Part shown: piece by piece, positions 5,796 through 51,801 of the stretch
Layout of the letters: each line of letters starts with the position of its first letter
Numbering within the stretch: position 1 is the first letter of the stretch
DNA from: a bacterium
GTDB taxonomy: Bacteria; Patescibacteriota; Minisyncoccia; Phycocordibacterales; JAUSHB01
DNA: 64,000 bases
Direction: 5' to 3'
NCBI GenBank assembly: GCA_030648955.1
Contig: JAUSHB010000010.1
Coordinates: forward strand, 13,556 to 77,555
Translations under genes and position numbers: made by a program
Notes under the pieces: model-generated
Database searches by the model: none
What the model saw: the letters and a program-made list of their open reading frames with translations, nothing else
Told to the model about the DNA's origin: nothing

Positions 5796-7829
5796 TTAAA
5801 TTTTTAGATCTAAATTTTGAGCAAAAAACGTAAGCAAAAGAGTCTGACTTTCAACAATTTTCTTTATTGGCTTACCTGGACCATGCCCGGTTTCCATTTC
5901 TGTAAAAATCAGCACTGTGTTCTTTTTATTAACGGATTGTAGCATGGCGGTCATTTTTCGTGCATGAAGTGGATCGACACGAGTATCCTTACTTGCTGTT
6001 GTAAAAAGGAAGGAAGGATATTCAACTCCCTCTTTCACGTTGTGGTATGGACTCCACTTTAAAATTCTTTGCAGATCTTCTTTTACTTCGGGGTTACCGT
6101 ATTCATGGACCCAACGAGATGCAATACCAAACAAGGGAAATCTAACCATATCAATTAATGGAACTCGAGAACAAACTGCTTTAAATAATTCTGGTCGCTG
6201 AACGGCAACCGCAGAAACCAATAAACCGCCGTTACTTCCTCCCAAAATACCAAGATGATCTCGGTCGGTATACTTTTCTTGAATAAGATATTCGGCGGCG
6301 GCAATAAAATCATCAAAAGAATTTTGTTTATTTTCTTTCATGCCATCTTTGTGCCATTTTTCACCAAATTCACCGCCACCTCGAATATTCGCAATAACAT
6401 AAATGCCTCCACGCTCCATCCATGACACGAAGCCTCTCATAAACCCTGGTGTGTTGAGGTCTGCAAAACCACCGTACCCATAGAGGATAGTAGGATTAAC
6501 TCCATCAACAGATATATTTTTCTTGTGAAAAATAAAAAGGGGTACTCTAGTTCCGTCTTTGGACTGATACCATTCCTGCTTGGTAACATAATCATTTGGG
6601 TTTATTGGGTTATCTGTTTTTCGGTATACCTCAAACTTATTTTCAATTGGAGAATATCGATATGTTATTTTAGGAAAAGTAAACGAATCAACGCCATAAA
6701 AAAACTCATCTTCTTCAATGTTCCTAGAAATTCCGGCGAGACTCGAATACGGAGGAAGTGGTATTTCGCCGATTTCTTTACCACTATGGTCAAACATTAC
6801 CACCTTTGAACAAGCATCAACAAGATAAGTTACGATTATTTTAGTTTTTGTAGTAGTTTCTGACTGCAAAAGATATTTCCGCTCTGGAATTAATTCTTCC
6901 CAGTCTTCAGTCGGAGTAAATAGATTTATGATAGGAACCGAAAGGATTCTAAAATTATTTGCATTATAATTAGTACCTACAATTACTTTATCTTCTAAAA
7001 ACTTGAGTGAAAATTTCGCAGGCATACCAACTACAAAAGGTTTTGTTTGCTTAGTATCCCTATCGTAAATATAAATATCGTTTTCAGTCCATGTTACCGC
7101 TGATGAAATTGCCAAATATCGTCCATCCATTGAAATAGTAATACCGAGCATATCATCTTTTGGACGATCTTTACCGAAAATAAGTTCATCGTTATTTGGA
7201 TTATCACCAATTTTATGAAAATAGATTTTTGTATGAAGATGTTCCTCGTTTTTAGGAACAGTACCAGGTTCGGGGTTCTTCGTATAGAAAAAACCGGAGT
7301 CATCAGGAAGCCAACTTATTTGGGAATGTCTGCACCGAGGAATTTGTTCTGATAGATTTATACCAGTATCCACTCCCTTTATGTACATTATTGCCATCTC
7401 ATCACCTCCCTGCGAAAGACCATATGCGAGATATTTACCAGTTCGAGATACCGACCAAAAAGCGATATTGATCGTATTGTCATCCCTCATCCCATTAGGA
7501 TCTACAAGTTTAACGGGGTTGCCATTTATTCCAGTTCTCACATAAAGTGCGGATTGGTCCTCGTCCGGTTGGCGCTCGCTATAAAAATACTTTCCCCTAA
7601 CAGGAATAGGATTTGAAAAATTAACAACCTTAAAATTCTTAACGAGTTCGTTAGAGAATATTTCAAAATTTTCATTTCGTAGGAAGGAATCAGTATAGGA
7701 ATTTTGAGATTCAACCCATTCCTTTGTTTCAGAACTTTTTGCATCTTCAAGCCAACGGTATGGATCAGATATTGAAATGCCATTAATAGAATCAATGATG
7801 TTATCTTTTTTAGTTTGTGGAATTTTCAT
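5796..7829 (-). CDS. prolyl oligopeptidase (S9A family serine peptidase)
   Basis: 677 aa with a beta-propeller N-terminal half and a C-terminal alpha/beta hydrolase. Catalytic serine motif GGSNGGLLV, plus YGYGGF. Confidence 0.85.
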   Translation of the reverse strand: MKIPQTKKDNIIDSINGISISDPYRWLEDAKSSETKEWVESQNSYTDSFLRNENFEIFSNELVKNFKVVNFSNPIPVRGKYFYSERQPDEDQSALYVRTGINGNPVKLVDPNGMRDDNTINIAFWSVSRTGKYLAYGLSQGGDEMAIMYIKGVDTGINLSEQIPRCRHSQISWLPDDSGFFYTKNPEPGTVPKNEEHLHTKIYFHKIGDNPNNDELIFGKDRPKDDMLGITISMDGRYLAISSAVTWTENDIYIYDRDTKQTKPFVVGMPAKFSLKFLEDKVIVGTNYNANNFRILSVPIINLFTPTEDWEELIPERKYLLQSETTTKTKIIVTYLVDACSKVVMFDHSGKEIGEIPLPPYSSLAGISRNIEEDEFFYGVDSFTFPKITYRYSPIENKFEVYRKTDNPINPNDYVTKQEWYQSKDGTRVPLFIFHKKNISVDGVNPTILYGYGGFADLNTPGFMRGFVSWMERGGIYVIANIRGGGEFGEKWHKDGMKENKQNSFDDFIAAAEYLIQEKYTDRDHLGILGGSNGGLLVSAVAVQRPELFKAVCSRVPLIDMVRFPLFGIASRWVHEYGNPEVKEDLQRILKWSPYHNVKEGVEYPSFLFTTASKDTRVDPLHARKMTAMLQSVNKKNTVLIFTEMETGHGPGKPIKKIVESQTLLLTFFAQNLDLKI

Positions 7830-42838: not shown

Positions 42839-44065
42839 TTACACAGGAAGGTTTGGAGGGGGTTCGGCTTTACGCGACTCAATACGTCCGAAAGTCGGAG
42901 TCTGAAGAACACCGCCGGGGAAATGGTAGATGGTAGCCAATTCTTCGGTGTTTAATATAAACGGTTTCCATTGAAACGGCTTGTAAAAATATCCCCGACT
43001 TTTATATGCCTTAAATAAATCAATTTTTTTCTTTGTTACGCGATACTTGTTGTAATCCTGCCATGGAAAATCAAATGACGTAACTCGTGTAGGCTTAAAG
43101 CCATTGAGATCATTGGTCGTATATTGTCGTAAAATCCCCATAAGTCCTTTGATGTGCGTACCATTAAATGAGTCTTTTTTTGCAAGATACATCGCGCGAA
43201 TTCCACAATCAAATCCTAATTTGGAAATACTGCGATTCAGTGCTTTGATTAAATCTTGTTCTGCCGTGGTAAGAAATCTCCCCGTTTTACCCTCTCCTTT
43301 CGGTTGTGATTTTTCGGTAATTTTACTTATCAAATCTTTGCCCTCATCTTTCCAACTTCGCATTCCCCACCCCATAAAACTATCCGGGTCCCGGTGACGA
43401 TCTTCGGCAGCACGAATTAATATCTGAATCCAAAATTGTTCATCCTTCTCCATTGTACCCAAAAATTCAAGCGTTGCTGTCATGGGGTCAGTTTTGAATT
43501 CTTCCTTGGTTGATTCTCTATCAAGACCATAATCGACATACGTTTTGATCGGATATGCATCTTCTTTTGAAAGAACAAACTCGGTTCCGAAAATTTCCCA
43601 CGAAGATTCTTTGCCGACATATTTTACATAACGAGTATAGTCGGGAACTTCATAAATTTCTACTTGAGGGTATTGTGCGTAAATCTGCGACTCAATAAGA
43701 TTTTTGTACACTTTATTGGTACGAATGAAAAACTTCACCGCGCCACCGAGTGACACCATTTCAAGAGAAAACCAATCTCGCACACGACCCTTGAAATACC
43801 AGTCATACCACGTCCCCTTGCTTGTTTGAAAAAATACATTAAGTAAAAGCTCCATCGCAAGGGGTGGTTTTGTAATTTCTCTTGGAAGTCTTACCTCAAG
43901 GATGACCCACTCAATCTTTGAAAGATATACCGCGCGAATATAATAGAGCCAAATGCGCCACAACACAATGAGAAGTACGAAAGGACCCCAAAAAACAAGA
44001 TAGCGAAAGGCTGCTTCGTAGATACTTAAAACTTGCCCGAATAGTTGAAAAAGCTGTTCAAACAT
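42839..44065 (-). CDS. hypothetical membrane-anchored protein (two N-terminal TM segments plus about 330 aa of soluble domain)
   Basis: No recognised motif. Confidence 0.5.
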   Translation of the reverse strand: MFEQLFQLFGQVLSIYEAAFRYLVFWGPFVLLIVLWRIWLYYIRAVYLSKIEWVILEVRLPREITKPPLAMELLLNVFFQTSKGTWYDWYFKGRVRDWFSLEMVSLGGAVKFFIRTNKVYKNLIESQIYAQYPQVEIYEVPDYTRYVKYVGKESSWEIFGTEFVLSKEDAYPIKTYVDYGLDRESTKEEFKTDPMTATLEFLGTMEKDEQFWIQILIRAAEDRHRDPDSFMGWGMRSWKDEGKDLISKITEKSQPKGEGKTGRFLTTAEQDLIKALNRSISKLGFDCGIRAMYLAKKDSFNGTHIKGLMGILRQYTTNDLNGFKPTRVTSFDFPWQDYNKYRVTKKKIDLFKAYKSRGYFYKPFQWKPFILNTEELATIYHFPGGVLQTPTFGRIESRKAEPPPNLPV

Positions 44066-44157
44066 ATGTTCCTTGTATCATATCGCACAATATCGATTTT
44101 AGGTAGTGGAATAAAGCTTCCAGAGCTTCATAAGCTTCGTTAGCTTTCTGAAGACTT

Positions 44158-44192
44158 AAAAGGGATTTGGAAGCAAGGCTTCCAAATCCCGC
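44158..44192 (-). terminator. intrinsic terminator GGGATTTGGAAGC-AAG-GCTTCCAAATCCC plus T-run (minus strand)
   Basis: 13-bp perfect stem. It lies downstream of the 44226 stop and is embedded in a GAAGCTTC-rich spacer. Confidence 0.65.
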
Positions 44193-44225
44193 AAGCTCCT
44201 GAAGCTATTGAAGCTCTGTCTTTGT

Positions 44226-45257
44226 CTATGCCGTAACTCGATATTTCCCTTTCTCGTCTCGTGCAAAATAATTGCTGTTTTGAAGATTTACCATAATAGT
44301 ATTTTCTTTCACCTGTCGTTCTTTGAGCACACGATCTACAATTTCTTTTTTTGTAAGGGGTCCCTCTTTTTTGAGAATCTTGCCAATAACATCACGCACA
44401 ACACCGCCTTCATAGCCCCATTGAGAGAGAGCGTAGAGACCTCGTCCAACAAGAACAAAACGTTTGTCTTTTATAAGTTCGTTGTGTGTTGTTGCAATAT
44501 GAGCACGCTTTCCAAAAACATCTGATATTGTTTTCGCGACATCGGTAAAATGCATGGGATTTCCTTGTTTTCGAAGCACTAAAAAAGCGTAATCTCTCAC
44601 ACCACGTGCAGACACATTGGGTGATGTTGAAACGCCCCATTCCCCCATAAGATTTCTTTTAATCTTTTTTGAAAGAAAAAGCCATCGTTTGAGAATTTCT
44701 TCATTTTTATATTGTTCTGAAATGTCTTTGAGGTGGTCAAGAAAGGAAGCGATCATTTCTGCTTCAGAAATAAGATCGTCGTCTGAAATATTTTCAAATA
44801 ATTTTTTGAGAGATTGATGAACTCTTTCGGCTATATTTTTATCGACAACCCAGCGATTCTTAAAGTGTTCATCTTCTTTGTGTTTCTCAAAAAGATGCCC
44901 GAGTACGAGTAAAAAGTTTATATTATTCTGAATAATTTTATCTGTTGAAATGTGCGTCAAAAGGCTTTCTTCGTCCACTACTCCACCCAATGAAACAAGT
45001 ACATCCTTAAGGTCGCTAAATGATTCCTGTGATTGCTTGAAAACTTCAGATTTTCTAATAATTTCAAGTGCAGCATTTTCAATCTGACGCACTCTCTCTC
45101 GTGTAATTGAGTACTTTTTCCCTATTGCCTCAAGCGTCATTTTCTTCCCATCACTCAATCCAAAACGGCCCTCGATTACGTTTCGGGCTCGCTCCGGTAT
45201 TACGGTAAGAAGTTTCTTAACAACTTGTTTGGGCTTGAAGGCTATAGTTTTTGCCAT
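44226..45257 (-). CDS. DNA-binding protein with an N-terminal sigma-70 region-4-like HTH and a C-terminal HARE-HTH-like winged helix
   Basis: MTLEAIGKKYSITRERVRQIENAAL is a classic region-4 signature. C-terminal MHFTDVAKTISDVFGKRAHIATTHNELIKDKRFVLVGRGLYALSQWGY fits the HARE-HTH / RpoE-N pattern (RFV-x-VG-x-G-x-Y-x-L-x-x-W). Confidence 0.55.
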   Translation of the reverse strand: MAKTIAFKPKQVVKKLLTVIPERARNVIEGRFGLSDGKKMTLEAIGKKYSITRERVRQIENAALEIIRKSEVFKQSQESFSDLKDVLVSLGGVVDEESLLTHISTDKIIQNNINFLLVLGHLFEKHKEDEHFKNRWVVDKNIAERVHQSLKKLFENISDDDLISEAEMIASFLDHLKDISEQYKNEEILKRWLFLSKKIKRNLMGEWGVSTSPNVSARGVRDYAFLVLRKQGNPMHFTDVAKTISDVFGKRAHIATTHNELIKDKRFVLVGRGLYALSQWGYEGGVVRDVIGKILKKEGPLTKKEIVDRVLKERQVKENTIMVNLQNSNYFARDEKGKYRVTA

Positions 45258-45376
45258 GGGGAGAATATTTATACTATTTGATAATTAATATATGGTTGCT
45301 ATATTTTTAGCATTAATGGAGAAATAAGTCAAATATTTGCACTGGGTCAGTGTATAGTTGACAGTAGACGAGCCCC

Positions 45377-46776
45377 TTGAAAACAATGAACAACCTGAAA
45401 ATACCGCTAAGAAACGACTGGCTGGGGGAGATCAAAAGGCGTAGCCTTGAGCGTATGCGAAATACTGCTGAAAAGGAGCTGAATCCAAACCATTACCAAT
45501 TGTCGAGCGAGGCAAAGAAGAGACTATGCTGGATGTATGCGCTTTACAAAGAACAGGGCGGGAATGTGACTGTCGCTGCACGCAATATCGGGATTTCCAG
45601 ACAGTGGCTGTCGGAGCTGAAGGCAGTCTTTGAAAAGCACAGGAAAGATCCCCGCTCGCTTGAACCGGAATCGAAAGCTCCAAAGAATACGCGGAACAGA
45701 AAAAGGATATCGAAGGAAGTGGAGGGTAAGATACTGGAAGTGAGGGCTCTGTCAAAGAATGTGTGGGGAAAACAGAAGATTGCGGTGGTGCTTCTGCGAG
45801 ACCATCACATCGTCGTTGCCCCCAACACCGTGAACAAATATCTGCACAAACACAAGAAGATTGACCCAAAAATATCACTGAAGAATGAGCGTGCATGGAA
45901 AGCAAAATTGGAAAGAGAGAAACCGGAAGCAGAGTTGTTTGTAAGATACCGCCCGCCGAAAGCAATCAGAAAGCAATCAAGGATTTGGCACCGGGAGCAC
46001 TTGTGGAGAAAGACATGAAATATGCTGTAAAACCAAGCTCAAACGATACACACGGCACCGTGAGCAACTTCTGGTATCAACATACAGCAACAGATTCTTT
46101 TACGAGAATCCGAGCACTCACGCTCGCGAAAGACAGCACCGCAGATGGCTCTGCAATTGCGTATGCGGAGTCAAAAGAAAAGTTTCCATTCCGTACCGCA
46201 TGTGCGAACACCGACAATGGGAGCGAGAACAAGGGGGAGCTCCGCGAGATGCTCAAGAAAGATACCGTCTTCCACTTCTACTCAAACGCAGGGACTCCAA
46301 CTGACAATCCGAGAGTCGAGAGATCGCACCTCACGGATGAGCTTGAGTTCTACCAGAAAGGCGGTTTCAAGAAAACATTTGGGGAGCAACAAGAAGCGAC
46401 GGCAGTATGGGAGCACTTCTACAACTTCGTGAGACCGCATCAAGCACTGGGATACCTGACACCGATGGCATTCTATGAATTATGGAAAACGGATGAAGAA
46501 AGTGCGTTTGAAATCGTGGGGAAATATCAAAAGTATTTGGCGAAACAAAGTAAGAGGCTTGCGGGGGCGAGGAGGATTAAAAAGACGGAGCAAGTACAAA
46601 AACTTATGGAATTTATCGATGTAAAATTAAATCAAAAGGTCGGACTAAAAAGAGCTAAAGAAGCTCTGATCAACTGTCAATTATGTTCCATAGCTTGAAC
46701 ACAATCGAATGGCCTCACCAAAAATCTAAGTGTGGCAAGTATCGTGACCTCACGAAAAATCTAACTGTGAGATATT
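45377..46776 (+). mobile_element. insertion sequence 1: rve-type DDE transposase in two overlapping frames (orfA 45377..46018, orfB 45895..46698); ends not resolved
   Basis: orfA has an HTH and an IS481/IS3-like N-terminus (...VTVAARNIGISRQWLSEL...). orfB has an integrase-core DDE domain (...DNGSENKGE ... NPRVERSHLTDELEFYQ ... FVRPHQALGYLTPMAFYEL). orfB is in the -1 frame relative to orfA with a 124-nt overlap. A 65-bp block with two CCTCACsAAAAAT subterminal repeats sits at 46707-46771. Confidence 0.7.
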
Positions 46777-46898
46777 GACAGAGGAGATCGGGAATTCAAA
46801 TATTACGCCACACAATTACCGAAACAATTACGGCTGTCCCTATTATCCCACCTATTATCCCACCTATTATCTATTATCTTTATAAAAAACACACCATT

Positions 46899-47405
46899 TT
46901 ACTTATTTGTATTTATTTTTTTGAAATGTAAAAAACCAATAACCACAGTACTAATCCCAATGCTCAATGTAACCACATCGACAATCTGCAAAAAAATATA
47001 AGAATCGTATCCTCTTGGTAATAATATTACTCCACCAAATACTATCAGAAACAAGCTCGCAAGAAACATATTAGCAAGACTGACTACATGGAGAATTACA
47101 TAACAATCACTAAAATTACTCCCACTAATCCAATTTTTTTTGTTAAAAATAATGAAGGGTGCGCCATACAGCGCAACTCCTAAAATGCCCAGAAATGGGT
47201 CGTACCATGAGGGTGCGGCGGGTTCAAAGATTATTGAAAATAAATAAATATACACTGAAAAAAACGTGACCCATTTATACACAGCGACACTCAATTGAGA
47301 GATTCTGTGCTCCTTGTACATTTGCATTGCAAGTAACGGATTAAAGAATTTTTGTATATTCATATATATTAAAATAATGATGCCCAAATATCCTGTACCA
47401 ACCAT
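46899..47405 (-). CDS. small multi-TM membrane protein (hypothetical; candidate immunity/transport partner)
   Basis: 168 aa with 4-5 TM segments, located between the two insertion sequences. Confidence 0.45.
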   Translation of the reverse strand: MVGTGYLGIIILIYMNIQKFFNPLLAMQMYKEHRISQLSVAVYKWVTFFSVYIYLFSIIFEPAAPSWYDPFLGILGVALYGAPFIIFNKKNWISGSNFSDCYVILHVVSLANMFLASLFLIVFGGVILLPRGYDSYIFLQIVDVVTLSIGISTVVIGFLHFKKINTNK

Positions 47406-47502
47406 TTAAAAAATTCCTTGATTTTTAAGAGTGTTTTCTTTATCATATTTTGTTACAAAAAGTGGGTTGGATAAATCCAACCCACCGAAGGTTACTGTAT
47501 TT

Positions 47503-47826
47503 TCAACATGAAGGCTGTTGAATGGTTGGTGCACAAGCTTTTAGTGGTGAAAACAAGGTAAAGCGAGAATCGCTTCCTATCCAGCCAGCAATTACATTGT
47601 AAGTTGCACCTATGATTTTATTGATAAACCACCCCTCCCCCCTCATCTCCGCCGCATCAGCATCCGAGAGCGGAAGACCGATCTTCTCGATCTCTGCCAG
47701 AGCTGCGGTTGGGTTTGACGCTAAGGCGTGGTTGATTTCACCTGCGGAAACAAATGAAGGAACAAGTGCAGTACACGCAATGGTGATTGCGATTGCAACG
47801 GATGCTACCTTTTTCTTCAAAAGCAT
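47503..47826 (-). CDS. small secreted protein (signal peptide plus about 79-aa mature peptide with two C-terminal Cys)
   Basis: MLLKKKVASVAIAITIACTALVPSFVSA | GEIN ... ACAPTIQQPSC. The transcript appears to end in a hairpin at 47466-47490 (TGGGTTGGATAAATCCAACCCA). Confidence 0.5.
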   Translation of the reverse strand: MLLKKKVASVAIAITIACTALVPSFVSAGEINHALASNPTAALAEIEKIGLPLSDADAAEMRGEGWFINKIIGATYNVIAGWIGSDSRFTLFSPLKACAPTIQQPSC

Positions 47827-47942
47827 GAGTGACCTCCTAGGGTCGCGAGTGGTATCTATGGTGTTAAGGGGCTACTTTTCAGGTACGGTGATCTGTATCT
47901 AGGGGAGAGTATATATGAAGTGTGGCGTGTTGTAAATACCCC

Positions 47943-49263
47943 GAATGGCCTCACCAAAAATGTTACCAGCCAAGGTATCGTGACCTCACGAAAAAGGTTA
48001 CCAAGGATTAGTATTGGTGCATATGAAAATGCATACAAAACATGAAGTAACAAAAGAGATACTACCAAGATATTTAAAGGCCAGTAAAGACGAAAAGGGG
48101 AAAATTCTAGATGAGTTTGGAGCTATCACGGGATATCATAAAAAATCGGCGATTAGAAAACTACGAGAACTTCAAATGACTCCGCATAGTAAGGAAGGCA
48201 TAGCGGGGAAACATACGAGAAATCGTGAAAGAAAATACGACGGGTATGTCGAGGTTGTTGTGGAACAACTATATGAAGCTTTGGGTGGTATCGGTTCAAG
48301 AAGAATATATCCCTTACTTGAGACAATGATTGATAAAGGAATTGAGTTTGGACATATTAAAACTGATCCGATAACAGAAATGAAAGTTCGCGTCATGAGC
48401 AAAAGCACTCTTGATCGGATGATTACGCGGGTCAGAGAAAGAAATGCCATCAAAGGTATTTCAACGACCAGGCCGGGAACACTGTTGAAAAGCGAGATAC
48501 CGCTTCGGGTCGGCGTGTGGGAAGAAACAGATCCCGGGTTTTCCGAGATTGATCTGGTTGCTCACTGCGGAGACAGTGGTGCTGGAATGTTCATTTCGAC
48601 CTTAAATACCACGGATATTGCGACAGCTTGGTTTGAGGCGGAAGCTGTCATGGGTAAAGCTCAAGAACGCGTATTGGACGGTATGCGAGAGATTGAAGCG
48701 AGACTGCCTTTTACTCTCGCCGGTATCGATTCCGACAATGGATCAGAATTCATCAATCGTCAGTTGTATGGATATTGTTTAAAAAACAAAATCATTTTTA
48801 CCAGATCAAGGCCGTACAAGAAAAATGACAATGCACATATCGAGCAGAAGAATTATACGACCGTCAGACAAGTATTGGGATACCAAAGATTTGATACTGA
48901 AGAAGTACTTAAGCTGATGAAAACTTTGTATCGCGGACCGCTTCGATTGTACATTAATTTTTTTCAGCCTTCAGTAAAATGTGTGAAGAAAACAAGAATC
49001 GGTTCGAGAATCAAGAAAATATATGATGTGGCTAAAACTCCGTATGAACGAGTGCTTGCTCATCCAAAGATATCACAGAAAACAAAAGAGACGCTTACGC
49101 GTCTCTTTAAGAGTCTTGATCCATTCGAACTAAGAAAAGAAATTGATGTCTTGGTTAGAGAAATTCAAAAGCGCGGACGATGGCATTTGTGATATACTTT
49201 TTGCATTAAAAGTTAATCGCGCCCAGATTAATCCTCGGTAACATTCTTAGATGAGGTCATGCG
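47943..49263 (+). mobile_element. insertion sequence 2: single-ORF rve-type DDE transposase (48014..49192) with imperfect terminal inverted repeats
   Basis: Transposase of 392 aa with an N-terminal HTH and DDE residues in DLVAHCG / IDSDNGSEF / NAHIEQKN. The left end 47975-48010 (CGTGACCTCACGAAAAAGGTTACCAAGGATTAGTATTGG) matches the reverse complement of 49223-49263 (CGCATGACCTCATCTAAGAATGTTACCGAGGATTAATCTGG). The left end carries two subterminal direct repeats. Confidence 0.75.
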
Positions 49264-49374
49264 TCCCCCTTCATACAGCTCTACCCTTATGATCTGACAA
49301 GAAGTGAGAGTGACTTAGAACCTGCCTAAAATCTCACCGCACAGTAACCCAATACATACAATGCTTGTCGTCCG

Positions 49375-51801
49375 CTATATAACAATACTCACGAGTTTCC
49401 CTTTCACATAGATTACTTTTTTGATATCCTTCCCTTCTGTCCACTTTCGCACGCTCTCCTCGGTTAATGCATGCGCCCTTGCGTCATCCTCGGAAATTCC
49501 CGTGGGGGTAATAAAACTTCCCCGTACCTTGCCGTTAACTTGAATCATGATCGTCACCGATTTTTCTCGTATTTTCGCCTCATCCCACTTGGGCCACGGT
49601 TCAATGTGGATCGACTTCTTGTGCCCTAGTGTCTCCCAAAGCTCTTCGGTCACATGGGGCGCGAATGGAGCAAGAAGGAGGAGGAGTGTCCCAAACTGAT
49701 TTTTCGAAGGCTTCGCTTTCTCTATGCCATTAATAAAAATCATGAGTGCTGAAACTGCCGTATTGAGACTGAATAATTCAATATCTTCTGTGATTTTTTT
49801 TATTGTTTTATGGGTAAGCGCTTCAAGGGTGACATCATCAACAAGAGCAAGTTTCTCTGTAAGCCGCCAGACTTTTTCCAAAAATCTCCGCGGTCCGATA
49901 ATGCTTTCCGTGCTCCATGAGACAGATTGGTTGAACGGCCCCATGAACATCTCGTACAAACGAAGCGTATCGGCGCCATAGGTCGCCACGATATCATCCG
50001 GGTTCACCACATTGCCATAGCGTTTACTCATTTTACGTCCGTCTTCCGCCTGAATGATTCCCACATTTTGAAGACGTGAAAATGGTTCCACATAGTTCAC
50101 TGCTCCAGTATCATAAAGAAACTTATGCCAAAAGCGCGCGTAGATAAGATGGCGTGTCGCGTGCTCCGCTCCGCCGACATACATATCAACCGGCGACCAG
50201 TATTTTTCTTTTTTCTTGTCAACAAGCGCTTTTTTATTTTTCGGATCGACATAGCGAAGGTAATACCACGAAGACCCTGCCCATTGCGGCATCGTGTTTG
50301 TCTCTCGCTTCGCGGGACCTTTACATGTGGGACATTTTACGTTGACCCATTTAGAAATCCCCGCAAGTGGTGATTCCCCTGTTCCCGTTGGTTCGTATGA
50401 TTTAACATTAGGAAGCTTAACAGGAAGATCTTTTTCTGGAACTGCAACAACACCACATTTCTTGCAGTGAATAAGCGGAATCGGCTCGCCCCAATAGCGC
50501 TGACGAGAGAATACCCAGTCTTTTAACTTATATTGGGTATTTCTTACTCCCCACTTATGACTTTCTATATAATTTGCAATATCGCTCCTTGCTTCATCTG
50601 GTCTTCTGCCTTTAAATTCTTTTGGTTCAAGAATAATTGAATGTTTAAAATCAGAAAAACAAATCTCATAATTCTCTACTTTACTTTGTAGTGTTTCGTC
50701 GTCAGGAAGCAGTACTGTTATAAGATTGATTCCATACTTCTTTGCAAAAGCAAAATCACGATTATCATGCGCGGAACATTTTACAATACCTGTGCCATAA
50801 TCGGCTAAAGCATAACTACTCACCCAAAGAGGAAGGTCTCGTTTGGTTATAGGGTCCTCAAGATAAACACCCGTAAAAACACCTTCGCATATTTCGTCTG
50901 TCTTAAAACCAGCACTACTGCGAAGTGCTGTAATTTTTTCTGCATTTTCAATAATTTCATTTTTTTCAGGAATATCTGATAGAAGTTCGGGTAAAAGTTT
51001 ATGATCAGAGGCAATTACAGCAAAAGTATCTGCAAAAAAAGCTTCGTAGTGAGTCGAATATGTTTCTATGTATTTATCTTTCCCTTTTACTTTAAGTTTA
51101 TATTTAACGCCATAATTTCTTCCGATCCAATTGCGTTGAGACTCTTTGATCGATTCCGGCCAGTTAAGCATGTCTAGGTCTTTGAGCAAGCGGTCAGCAT
51201 ATTTAGTGATGCGAAGCACCCACTGTCGCACAGGTTTTTTCTCCACGACCGTGCCGCATCGCTCACACCGATCTCCCTCAAGATCTTCATTGGCAAGGCC
51301 TGTCTGACACGATGGACACCAATTGATCGGCTCGTGCGATTCATACGCAAGCCCTTTTTTGAACATCTGTAAAAATGTCCACTGTGTCCATCGATAATAT
51401 TCCGAGTCAGTGGTATTGATCTCTCGTTCCCAATCGTAACTAAATCCAATGATAGAAAGCTGCTCTTTGTAGCGTTTGGTATTTTTTAAAACGGCCACGC
51501 GAGGGTGAGTCTTGGTTTTGATCGCGTATTGTTCCGCGGGAAGTCCGAATGCATCCCAACCCATTGGATGCAACACGCTAAAATTGTTCATTCTTTTGAA
51601 CCGCGCGTAGATATCCGTTGCGATATATCCCTTGGGATGCCCAACATGAAGACCTTCGCCTGATGGATATGGAAACATGTCAAGAACATAACACTTTTTC
51701 TTTTTTGTGTCCGTGCGTGTTTTATAGAGTTTCTTTTTTGCCCACTCCTTTTGCCACTTTTTCTCAATCTTTTTGTGGTCGTATGATTTATTTTTCTTCA
51801 T
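49375..51801 (-). CDS. leuS: leucine--tRNA ligase
   Basis: HIGH motif (HVGHPKGY) and KMSKS motif (KMSKRYGN); 808 aa with editing and anticodon-binding domains. Confidence 0.95.
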   Translation of the reverse strand: MKKNKSYDHKKIEKKWQKEWAKKKLYKTRTDTKKKKCYVLDMFPYPSGEGLHVGHPKGYIATDIYARFKRMNNFSVLHPMGWDAFGLPAEQYAIKTKTHPRVAVLKNTKRYKEQLSIIGFSYDWEREINTTDSEYYRWTQWTFLQMFKKGLAYESHEPINWCPSCQTGLANEDLEGDRCERCGTVVEKKPVRQWVLRITKYADRLLKDLDMLNWPESIKESQRNWIGRNYGVKYKLKVKGKDKYIETYSTHYEAFFADTFAVIASDHKLLPELLSDIPEKNEIIENAEKITALRSSAGFKTDEICEGVFTGVYLEDPITKRDLPLWVSSYALADYGTGIVKCSAHDNRDFAFAKKYGINLITVLLPDDETLQSKVENYEICFSDFKHSIILEPKEFKGRRPDEARSDIANYIESHKWGVRNTQYKLKDWVFSRQRYWGEPIPLIHCKKCGVVAVPEKDLPVKLPNVKSYEPTGTGESPLAGISKWVNVKCPTCKGPAKRETNTMPQWAGSSWYYLRYVDPKNKKALVDKKKEKYWSPVDMYVGGAEHATRHLIYARFWHKFLYDTGAVNYVEPFSRLQNVGIIQAEDGRKMSKRYGNVVNPDDIVATYGADTLRLYEMFMGPFNQSVSWSTESIIGPRRFLEKVWRLTEKLALVDDVTLEALTHKTIKKITEDIELFSLNTAVSALMIFINGIEKAKPSKNQFGTLLLLLAPFAPHVTEELWETLGHKKSIHIEPWPKWDEAKIREKSVTIMIQVNGKVRGSFITPTGISEDDARAHALTEESVRKWTEGKDIKKVIYVKGKLVSIVI

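Follow-up and report, generated by a model that had tools for sequence, protein, structure and literature searches.

Insertion sequences around a secreted-peptide and membrane-protein gene pair in a patescibacterial genome: probable independent insertions beside a resident module

Layout of the locus

A gene pair encoding a small secreted peptide and a membrane protein lies among insertion sequences (ISs) in the genome of a bacterium of the Patescibacteriota (assembly GCA_030648955.1, contig JAUSHB010000010.1, positions 13,556 to 77,555). The arrangement is very probably the outcome of three independent IS insertions in the two intergenic spacers that flank a resident two-gene module, with no composite transposon involved. 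The window is this whole 64-kb stretch, and all coordinates refer to it. From left to right, the locus holds a broken IS481-like element (sequence 1); a short repeat block (block A); the membrane-protein gene; the peptide gene; and an ISBj12-like element (sequence 2), which begins with a second repeat block (block B). Nearly all host genes here, those for the peptide and the membrane protein among them, are on the minus strand; both transposase genes lie on the plus strand. A search of Rfam gave no match in 44000-50000.

Comparison of 45200-49400 with the whole window returns one significant internal match: 46706-46759 pairs with 47942-47995 at 85% identity over 55 bp (E 1.6e-9). The matching segments, ~55-69 bp long, are block A (46706-46774, plus strand) and block B (47942-48010, plus strand). 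A repeat finder places two direct copies of TGRCCTCACSAAAAA in each block, with a spacing of 35 bp, and the whole 64 kb contains exactly four copies of the 12-mer CCTCACSAAAAA, all of them plus-strand and all within blocks A and B. The reverse complement of 49223-49263 also aligns with the left-end sites (CGCATGACCTCATCTAAGAATGTTACC). The blocks and their paired direct repeats had been described in an earlier note on this DNA, whose coordinates were off by at most one base.

The complete ISBj12-like element

Sequence 2 (47942-49263, plus strand) is a complete IS of 1322 bp. Block B is its left end; an intact transposase gene (48023-49192, plus strand; alternative start 48014) encodes 389 amino acids (aa) with an rve catalytic core of the DDE integrase type (Pfam match); and the right end (49223-49263, minus strand) carries one clear site, R1. 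The adjoining pentamers, TACCC on the left (47937-47941) and TCCCC on the right (49264-49268), match at four of five bases and are the two copies of a probable target duplication. The contig L005, a stand-alone sequence of 1322 bp, is colinear with 47942-49263 from first base to last; L006 is also colinear over the full length, and five further complete copies measure 1322-1323 bp. The earlier proposal of a complete rve-type IS of about 1.3 kb, with block B as its left end, is supported. The element is intact and probably active.

Homologues of the transposase number at least 8000. The nearest are 72-84% identical and of equal length, and sit mostly on contigs of 1.3-1.5 kb; such short contigs are the signature of a repeated element breaking assemblies. 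Named sources include Kaiserbacteria, Nomurabacteria and Saccharibacteria genomes, and remoter relatives (36-57% identity) occur in many phyla. In plasmid records, tblastn finds coding sequences (CDSs) annotated ‘ISNCY-like element ISBj12 family transposase’; they align with 99% of the protein (residues 1-384) at 38.6% identity. The left end of an annotated ISBj12 copy (L107), CGCATTGCCTCGCCTTAATTGTTACC...CCGTTGCCTCACGTAAATTGC, has the same terminal sequence and a second direct site; this comparison of ends covers the left end. Because of the transposase match and the shared left-end architecture, sequence 2 is assigned to the known and very large ISNCY/ISBj12-like group. A sequence search of the PDB with the transposase returned insignificant integrase matches only.

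Multi-copy genomes help to define the element. In a Fibrobacterota genome, 14 near-identical copies fix the termini to the base, and perfect 4-bp duplications flank 11 of the 14. Two of the other copies in this genome (MFD03044), L069 and L072, have target-duplication halves that are swapped (cgga/gttt vs gttt/ccgg), which indicates an inversion or recombination between copies. Among copies of the patescibacterial type, perfect 5-bp duplications are present in three of eight (L087 ggcga, L098 ggtcg, L006 taatc).

End architecture and the element-specific hexamer

The left ends of seven sequences align from a common CGAAT(G/T) terminus (CGAATGG), with two direct sites each; the right ends of the aligned copies have one clear inverted site. 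Each site consists of a conserved half, made up of (A/G)CCTCA and an A-rich stretch, followed by a hexamer. In sequence 2 the left-end sites are L1 (47945-47970) and L2 (47980-48005), and both, like R1, carry GTTACC. The hexamers are uniform across an element’s three sites in seven of eight elements and vary between elements: GTTACC in the window IS, L006, L096 and L098; CACACC in L087 and L099; CTAACT in L005. This covariation suggests that the site is a transposase-binding site with an element-specific recognition half. The sequence 2 transposase would then recognise a bipartite site of ~26 bp, TGRCCTCAnnnAAAA plus the element-specific hexamer, with two direct copies at the left end and an inverted one at the right. 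Such a description supplies precise ends for a very abundant, barely described ISBj12-like lineage in Patescibacteria, and could help annotate many orphan contigs of ~1.3 kb in groundwater metagenomes.

Block A as a solo left end

Block A carries two putative transposase-binding sites with the hexamers CTAAGT and CTAACT vs GTTACC in the resident IS. Its match to the left end of L005, a Saccharibacteria contig, reaches 92.8% identity over 69 bp, vs 85% over 55 bp for sequence 2. Its outer boundary is an intact family terminus, and its similarity to L005 ends at 46774, just before the expected transposase start codon. No transposase remnant is present downstream (46700-46900 examined), and no right end matching block A occurs anywhere in the window. 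On these grounds, block A is identified as the solo left end of a second member of the ISBj12-like family, of the CTAACT subtype. All sequence to the right of its two left-end sites has been lost, leaving an inert end.

The earlier note had considered block A either a solo end, as it now proves, or a shared recognition site, and had spoken of related subterminal repeats in the two ISs. Block A is not a subterminal repeat of sequence 1: no inverted copy of it exists at the other (left) end of that element. A candidate third repeat of the sequence 1 type, TTGACAG at 46773-46779, was rejected, the match being limited to the 7-mer.

Solo ends also occur elsewhere. A metagenome scan with the 20-mer terminus found 17 loci, which comprise complete copies, fragments at contig ends, one 764-bp deleted derivative (L100) and four loci with a terminus and no following transposase gene. 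Both sites survive in two of the four, L097 and L091, where the truncation falls at roughly the same point as in block A; solo left ends are therefore a recurrent by-product of the family. The L100 derivative (343-1106) has an internal deletion that removes transposase residues 49-235 and keeps both ends, making it a candidate non-autonomous element.

Sequence 1, a broken IS481-like element

Sequence 1 (45351-46690, plus strand) has approximate boundaries. Its ends are given by candidate 15-bp inverted repeats at 45354-45368 and 46670-46684, complementary at 13 of 15 positions, and its G+C content is 47-49% vs ~38% in the flanks. The transposase pseudogene (45386-46698, plus strand) is split into orfA (45377-46018) and orfB (45895-46698), both rve/IS481-like and both assigned to IS481 by NCBIfam. 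An 11-bp tandem duplication read directly from the sequence (45959-45980, plus strand; AAAGCAATCAG / AAAGCAATCAA, units identical at 10 of 11 positions) coincides with the frame change. The separate frames score 48 and 80 bits; with one 11-bp unit deleted, they become an open reading frame (ORF) of 433 aa with a single contiguous IS481 match of 131 bits covering model positions 7-283. The duplication is thus the cause of the frameshift that inactivates sequence 1.

The reconstructed protein is ~30% identical to annotated IS481-family transposases. With a frameshifted gene and a score of 131 bits, where the curated cut-off is 224, sequence 1 is IS481-like and not a certified IS481 member. It shares 24% identity with the transposase of sequence 2; the two belong to different, unrelated families. 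The earlier idea of two ISs with related repeats is not supported. Exact-protein look-up, a viral-contig scan and tblastn/blastn of fetched loci retrieved no relatives of sequence 1, and for this reason its ends remain approximate.

Several observations concern the surroundings of sequence 1. The 12-mer CTGTCAATTATG lies at 46672-46683, within the candidate right inverted repeat, and recurs in L088 (1940-1951), an unrelated groundwater contig, where it directly abuts an ISBj12-like left end and where there is no IS481-like gene. The sharing is probably a promoter-like (TTGACA) coincidence, but may be a hint of target preference. On the other side, the neighbouring gene at 44226-45257 (minus strand) encodes a 343-aa protein with a Sigma70 region 4 and a HARE-HTH domain; its start codon is ~95 bp from sequence 1, which lies on the upstream side and may influence the promoter. 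In the independent Logan assembly of SRR13727527, one contig boundary falls at 46599, within the 3' portion of sequence 1, and another in leuS at 50497, and sequence 1 may accordingly be repeated or polymorphic in that sample.

The peptide gene and its family

The peptide gene (47503-47826, minus strand) encodes a pre-pro-peptide of 107 aa, which family alignment divides into a hydrophobic Sec-type signal (residues 1-28), a conserved propeptide that ends in RGE (29-64) and a variable core formed by the final 43 residues (GWFINK...QQPSC). The core contains both cysteines, Cys98 and Cys107, in agreement with the earlier description of a 107-aa pre-peptide with a Sec signal and two C-terminal cysteines. 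A promoter scan places the promoter at 47872-47936 (minus strand), with the −35 box TTTACA at 47936-47931 and the −10 box TATACT at 47913-47908. Downstream of the −10 box lies a conserved element, TAGATACAGATCACCGTACCTGAAAAGTAG (47901-47872), which is kept in L003 and L102 and partly in L004. An intrinsic terminator (47461-47486, minus strand), with an 11-bp stem and then a T run, separates the peptide gene from the membrane-protein gene. The L102 locus has the −10 box and the element TAGATACAGAnCAnCGTnnCTGAAAAnTAG in common with the window, as well as an intrinsic terminator that separates its two genes (6345-6380). The terminator is strong and its position conserved, which suggests high expression of the peptide and low expression of its partner.

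The element TAGATACAGAnCAnCGTnnCTGAAAAnTAG, 30 nucleotides (nt) long and conserved, stands directly 3' of a TATACT −10 box before family peptide genes in different genomes (47872-47901 on the minus strand of the window; L003 95-125; L102 ~5930-5960; L004 ~2030-2052). It is partly palindromic in L004 and could be an operator or a hairpin in the 5' untranslated region.

A profile search defines a peptide family of 43 representative clusters, all small proteins of the same build: a Sec-type signal ending ASA; a 35-aa segment, (E/P)VNxxLAxNPxAxLxxIxxMNLxPLSDxxAxExRG(E/G); and a core of 35-90 aa that is unalignable and hypervariable, hydrophobic, aromatic and often provided with cysteine. Across 31 aligned members the motif LSDxxAxE(M/V)RGE is conserved, with RGG as the ending in a few. 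Neither the peptide nor its 30 relatives nor the membrane protein has a match in Pfam or NCBIfam, and no curated bacteriocin family is hit; literature searches found no description of this peptide family.

Membrane partners and C39 neighbours

The membrane-protein gene (46899-47363, minus strand) encodes 154 aa with four hydrophobic segments in the hydropathy profile. The start is more probably at 47363 than at 47405, which would give the 168 aa previously assigned. The protein is an orphan in a word-indexed database search. A 12-bp tandem repeat, CCTATTATCCCA, lies in 2.5 copies at 46839-46874, between the solo end and the 3' end of this gene.

Each type of peptide core is associated with its own membrane proteins. 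Core type 1 (the window peptide and P0127) is paired with homologous membrane proteins of 154/155 aa; core type 2 (P0002 and its relative P0125) is paired with homologous partners of 75 aa and 164/167 aa; and the two partner sets are unrelated.

Two loci, L004 and L106, have Peptidase_C39 genes that adjoin the family peptide genes; in L102 the distance is 4 kb. These C39 genes are stand-alone, and no ATP-binding cassette (ABC) exporter was seen in these three loci. In L004 (419-2534) and L106 (340-3304), both probably Gram-negative, the peptide genes are found beside a signal-bearing stand-alone C39 gene and an outer-membrane barrel gene; the barrel is of the Phenol_MetA_deg type and ends YWRF. 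The L004 peptide gene stops right after RGEV, and a membrane ORF of 78 aa begins 3 nt later.

A probable resident module rather than transposon cargo

The earlier note had proposed that the segment from 46.7 to 48.0 kb could move as a composite transposon. Blocks A and B are direct, not inverted, and a segment bounded by two direct left ends cannot transpose as such; the only mechanistically possible unit is 46706-49263. The flanks of that unit, ACAAT and TCCCC, share no target duplication, and the unit did not occur outside this genome in the searches made. A composite transposon is further contradicted by the flanking ISs, which come from different families. Sequence 2 most likely inserted on its own, because its own flanks match at four of five bases vs the mismatched flanks of 46706-49263. 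Its insertion point, with duplication of T(A/C)CCC, would lie upstream of the −35 box of the peptide promoter, at a distance of 5 bp. The order of the insertion events at the locus is something that we can only infer.

The gene pair also exists apart from ISs, as the earlier note had suggested looking for. On a 265-kb groundwater contig (L102), the peptide P0127, the nearest relative, is 48% identical to the window peptide, core included (E 9e-27), and is directly followed by a 155-aa protein 31% identical to the window membrane protein (E 9e-11); the gene order is the same, and there is no transposase or block within 6 kb. The same genome as the window contains a paralogous module (P0002, L003), with similarity extending from 75 nt upstream of the start codon to the RGE motif. 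On account of the end orientation, the mismatched unit flanks, the difference in hexamers, the IS-free module in L102 and the paralogue P0002, the gene pair is to be regarded as a resident chromosomal module and not as transposon cargo. The note had expected, were its proposal wrong, that the block would be found only within complete copies of sequence 2 and that the gene pair would occur in relatives lacking the ISs; the pair does occur so in L102, and the block is also found outside complete copies, as solo ends.

The module is an accessory locus, movable in evolution, and nothing ties its movement to these ISs. As regards mobile elements, the finding is plainly negative: ISs have accumulated around an accessory locus in the ordinary way, and no new cargo-carrying transposon is involved.

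Proposed function of the gene pair

The module consists of a promoter, the conserved 5' element, the peptide gene, the terminator and the membrane-protein gene. The peptide would most likely be exported by Sec and then lose its conserved propeptide, whose motif (LSDxxAxEMRGE) resembles a double-glycine leader. This loss would release a variable, amphipathic, cysteine-containing core with a bacteriocin-like role, and the membrane protein would be the cognate immunity or partner protein of that core. Both the processing and the antimicrobial and immunity functions are what we infer from the comparisons above.

A hypervariable core on a conserved leader, with its own small polytopic membrane partner and an intervening terminator, is the classic bacteriocin/immunity layout. 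Given the conserved leader, the hypervariable cores and the core-specific membrane partners, we lean slightly towards reading the gene pair as a bacteriocin and immunity module. The same suggestion in the earlier note gains support from these features and from the C39 genes that often occur near family members. A further step, distinctly less probable, is that the family is an undescribed bacteriocin-like class found in Patescibacteria-like and Gram-negative genomes, with a conserved propeptide of 35 aa, Sec export, extracytoplasmic cleavage at RG(E/G) by stand-alone C39 peptidases, and an immunity protein for each core. An uncurated secreted-peptide family that joins a Sec signal, a double-glycine-like propeptide and cognate membrane partners is a testable candidate for antagonism, and this candidate falls in organisms whose competition is almost wholly uncharted.

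Alternative explanations

Three other accounts of the repeats and transposases deserve consideration. If the split of orfA and orfB were a programmed ribosomal frameshift as in the IS3 family, sequence 1 could still be active; the overlapping frames, with a helix-turn-helix part and then an rve part, do recall the IS3 type of organisation. IS481-family transposases are normally single ORFs, however, and the frame change coincides with the 11-bp duplication, removal of one unit of which restores a contiguous IS481-type ORF. A +2/−1 shift would also be required across a 124-nt overlap in which no slippery heptamer was noted (no search for one was made), and programmed frameshifting is very unlikely. 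A shade less likely still is a 2.56-kb transposon (46706-49263), in which block A would serve as a second, outer left end paired with the right end of sequence 2, and the resident transposase would mobilise the gene pair as cargo. Block A is co-oriented with the left end of the IS, both its sites and its terminus are intact, and it shares an identical conserved half-site with the resident IS; the deleted derivative L100, with both ends, shows that the family can form non-autonomous elements. Against this, ACAAT and TCCCC share no duplication whereas the IS alone matches at four of five bases, the CTAAGT/CTAACT hexamers of block A differ from the GTTACC of all three resident sites in a family where hexamers are uniform within elements, the gene pair is free of ISs in L102, and the searches made found no other copy of the unit. 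That the blocks are host repeats (regulatory or preferred target sites) beside which both ISs integrated, and not IS ends, can be given almost no credence. The adjacency of block A to sequence 1 and of block B to the sequence 2 transposase gene, in the same orientation, would suit such repeats, but the multi-copy comparisons refute them: in many genomes, independent copies with unrelated flanks end exactly at the block, its inverted partner is present at the opposite end of those copies, and stand-alone contigs such as L005 start and end exactly at these sequences.

For the gene pair, the rival account replaces the toxin and its immunity protein by a signalling peptide that is secreted, or by a subunit of surface or amyloid type, together with a receptor or processing partner in the membrane. 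This is possible though doubtful. The peptide genes of L004 and L106 stand beside a secreted C39-like peptidase and an outer-membrane barrel, a setting that recalls the Fap functional-amyloid system, and the family has no sequence match to known bacteriocin families; its hypervariable cores, conserved leader, core-specific polytopic partners and intervening terminator are those of the classic bacteriocin layout.

Several points weigh against the interpretation preferred here, that of independent ISs around a resident bacteriocin-like module. The target duplication of sequence 2 is imperfect, and four of the eight complete copies examined show none, so the argument from target duplication is suggestive and not proof. 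No target duplication was found for sequence 1, the boundaries of which are placed tentatively by the inverted repeat. In this genome, block copies were counted within the 64-kb window. The neighbourhoods of the module differ between the window and L102. With regard to function, there is no Peptidase_C39 gene in the 64-kb window; the C39 protein of L102 has no signal peptide, and unrelated genes separate its gene from the peptide gene. The putative cleavage motif ends G-E in most members, where G-G is canonical. The structure prediction proposed for the peptide yielded an AlphaFold model with helices only and of low confidence (predicted local distance difference test, pLDDT, 65).

Comparison with known systems

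The Fap system includes FapD, a periplasmic C39-like protein. The window locus differs from it in having neither a C39 gene nor a barrel gene. Fap is a functional-amyloid secretion system with the outer-membrane channel FapF and Sec-exported substrates (PMC5557850). The loci L004 and L106 resemble it in encoding Sec-signal substrates beside a secreted C39-like peptidase and an outer-membrane barrel; the likeness is one of layout.

Double-glycine leaders follow the pattern LSxxELxxIxGG, and the C39 peptidase is normally the N-terminal domain of an ABC exporter. Compared with class II bacteriocins, both those with a double-glycine leader and the Sec-dependent ones, the family differs in several respects: its leader is preceded by a Sec signal, the last leader residue is usually Glu and not Gly, its C39 proteins stand alone, free of any fusion to an ABC transporter, and it has no curated-family match. 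It resembles them in its small precursor, with a conserved leader and a variable, amphipathic core containing cysteine; in a motif that has Leu at −12, Ser at −11, a hydrophobic residue at −4 and Gly at −2, as in double-glycine leaders; and in the gene for a small polytopic membrane protein that adjoins the peptide gene, with C39 genes nearby in three loci.

Among the mobile elements, sequence 1 departs from IS481 in that its gene is broken and its transposase is longer by 52 aa at the N terminus and 74 aa at the C terminus; the reconstructed transposase matches the IS481 model end to end. IS21, Tn7, Mu and Tn552 have an rve-type transposase and repeated binding sites set asymmetrically at both ends. 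Sequence 2 also combines an rve-type transposase with asymmetric repeated putative sites, a functional analogy only: it has no accessory ATPase or second gene, is far smaller, and has termini CG, not TG. In the Fibrobacterota relative there are two sites at each end, whereas the window IS has one clear right-end site. Compared with ISBj12 and related ISNCY elements, sequence 2 stands for a compact patescibacterial lineage: the unit measures 1322 bp and its transposase 389 aa, against ~503 aa for the annotated ISBj12 CDS. Both have a single rve/DDE transposase and a terminus CG(A/C)AT(T/G)GCCTC...GTTACC that is repeated in direct orientation ~35 bp further in at the left end. Target duplications among family copies are short, 4-5 bp, and the one at sequence 2 is probable.

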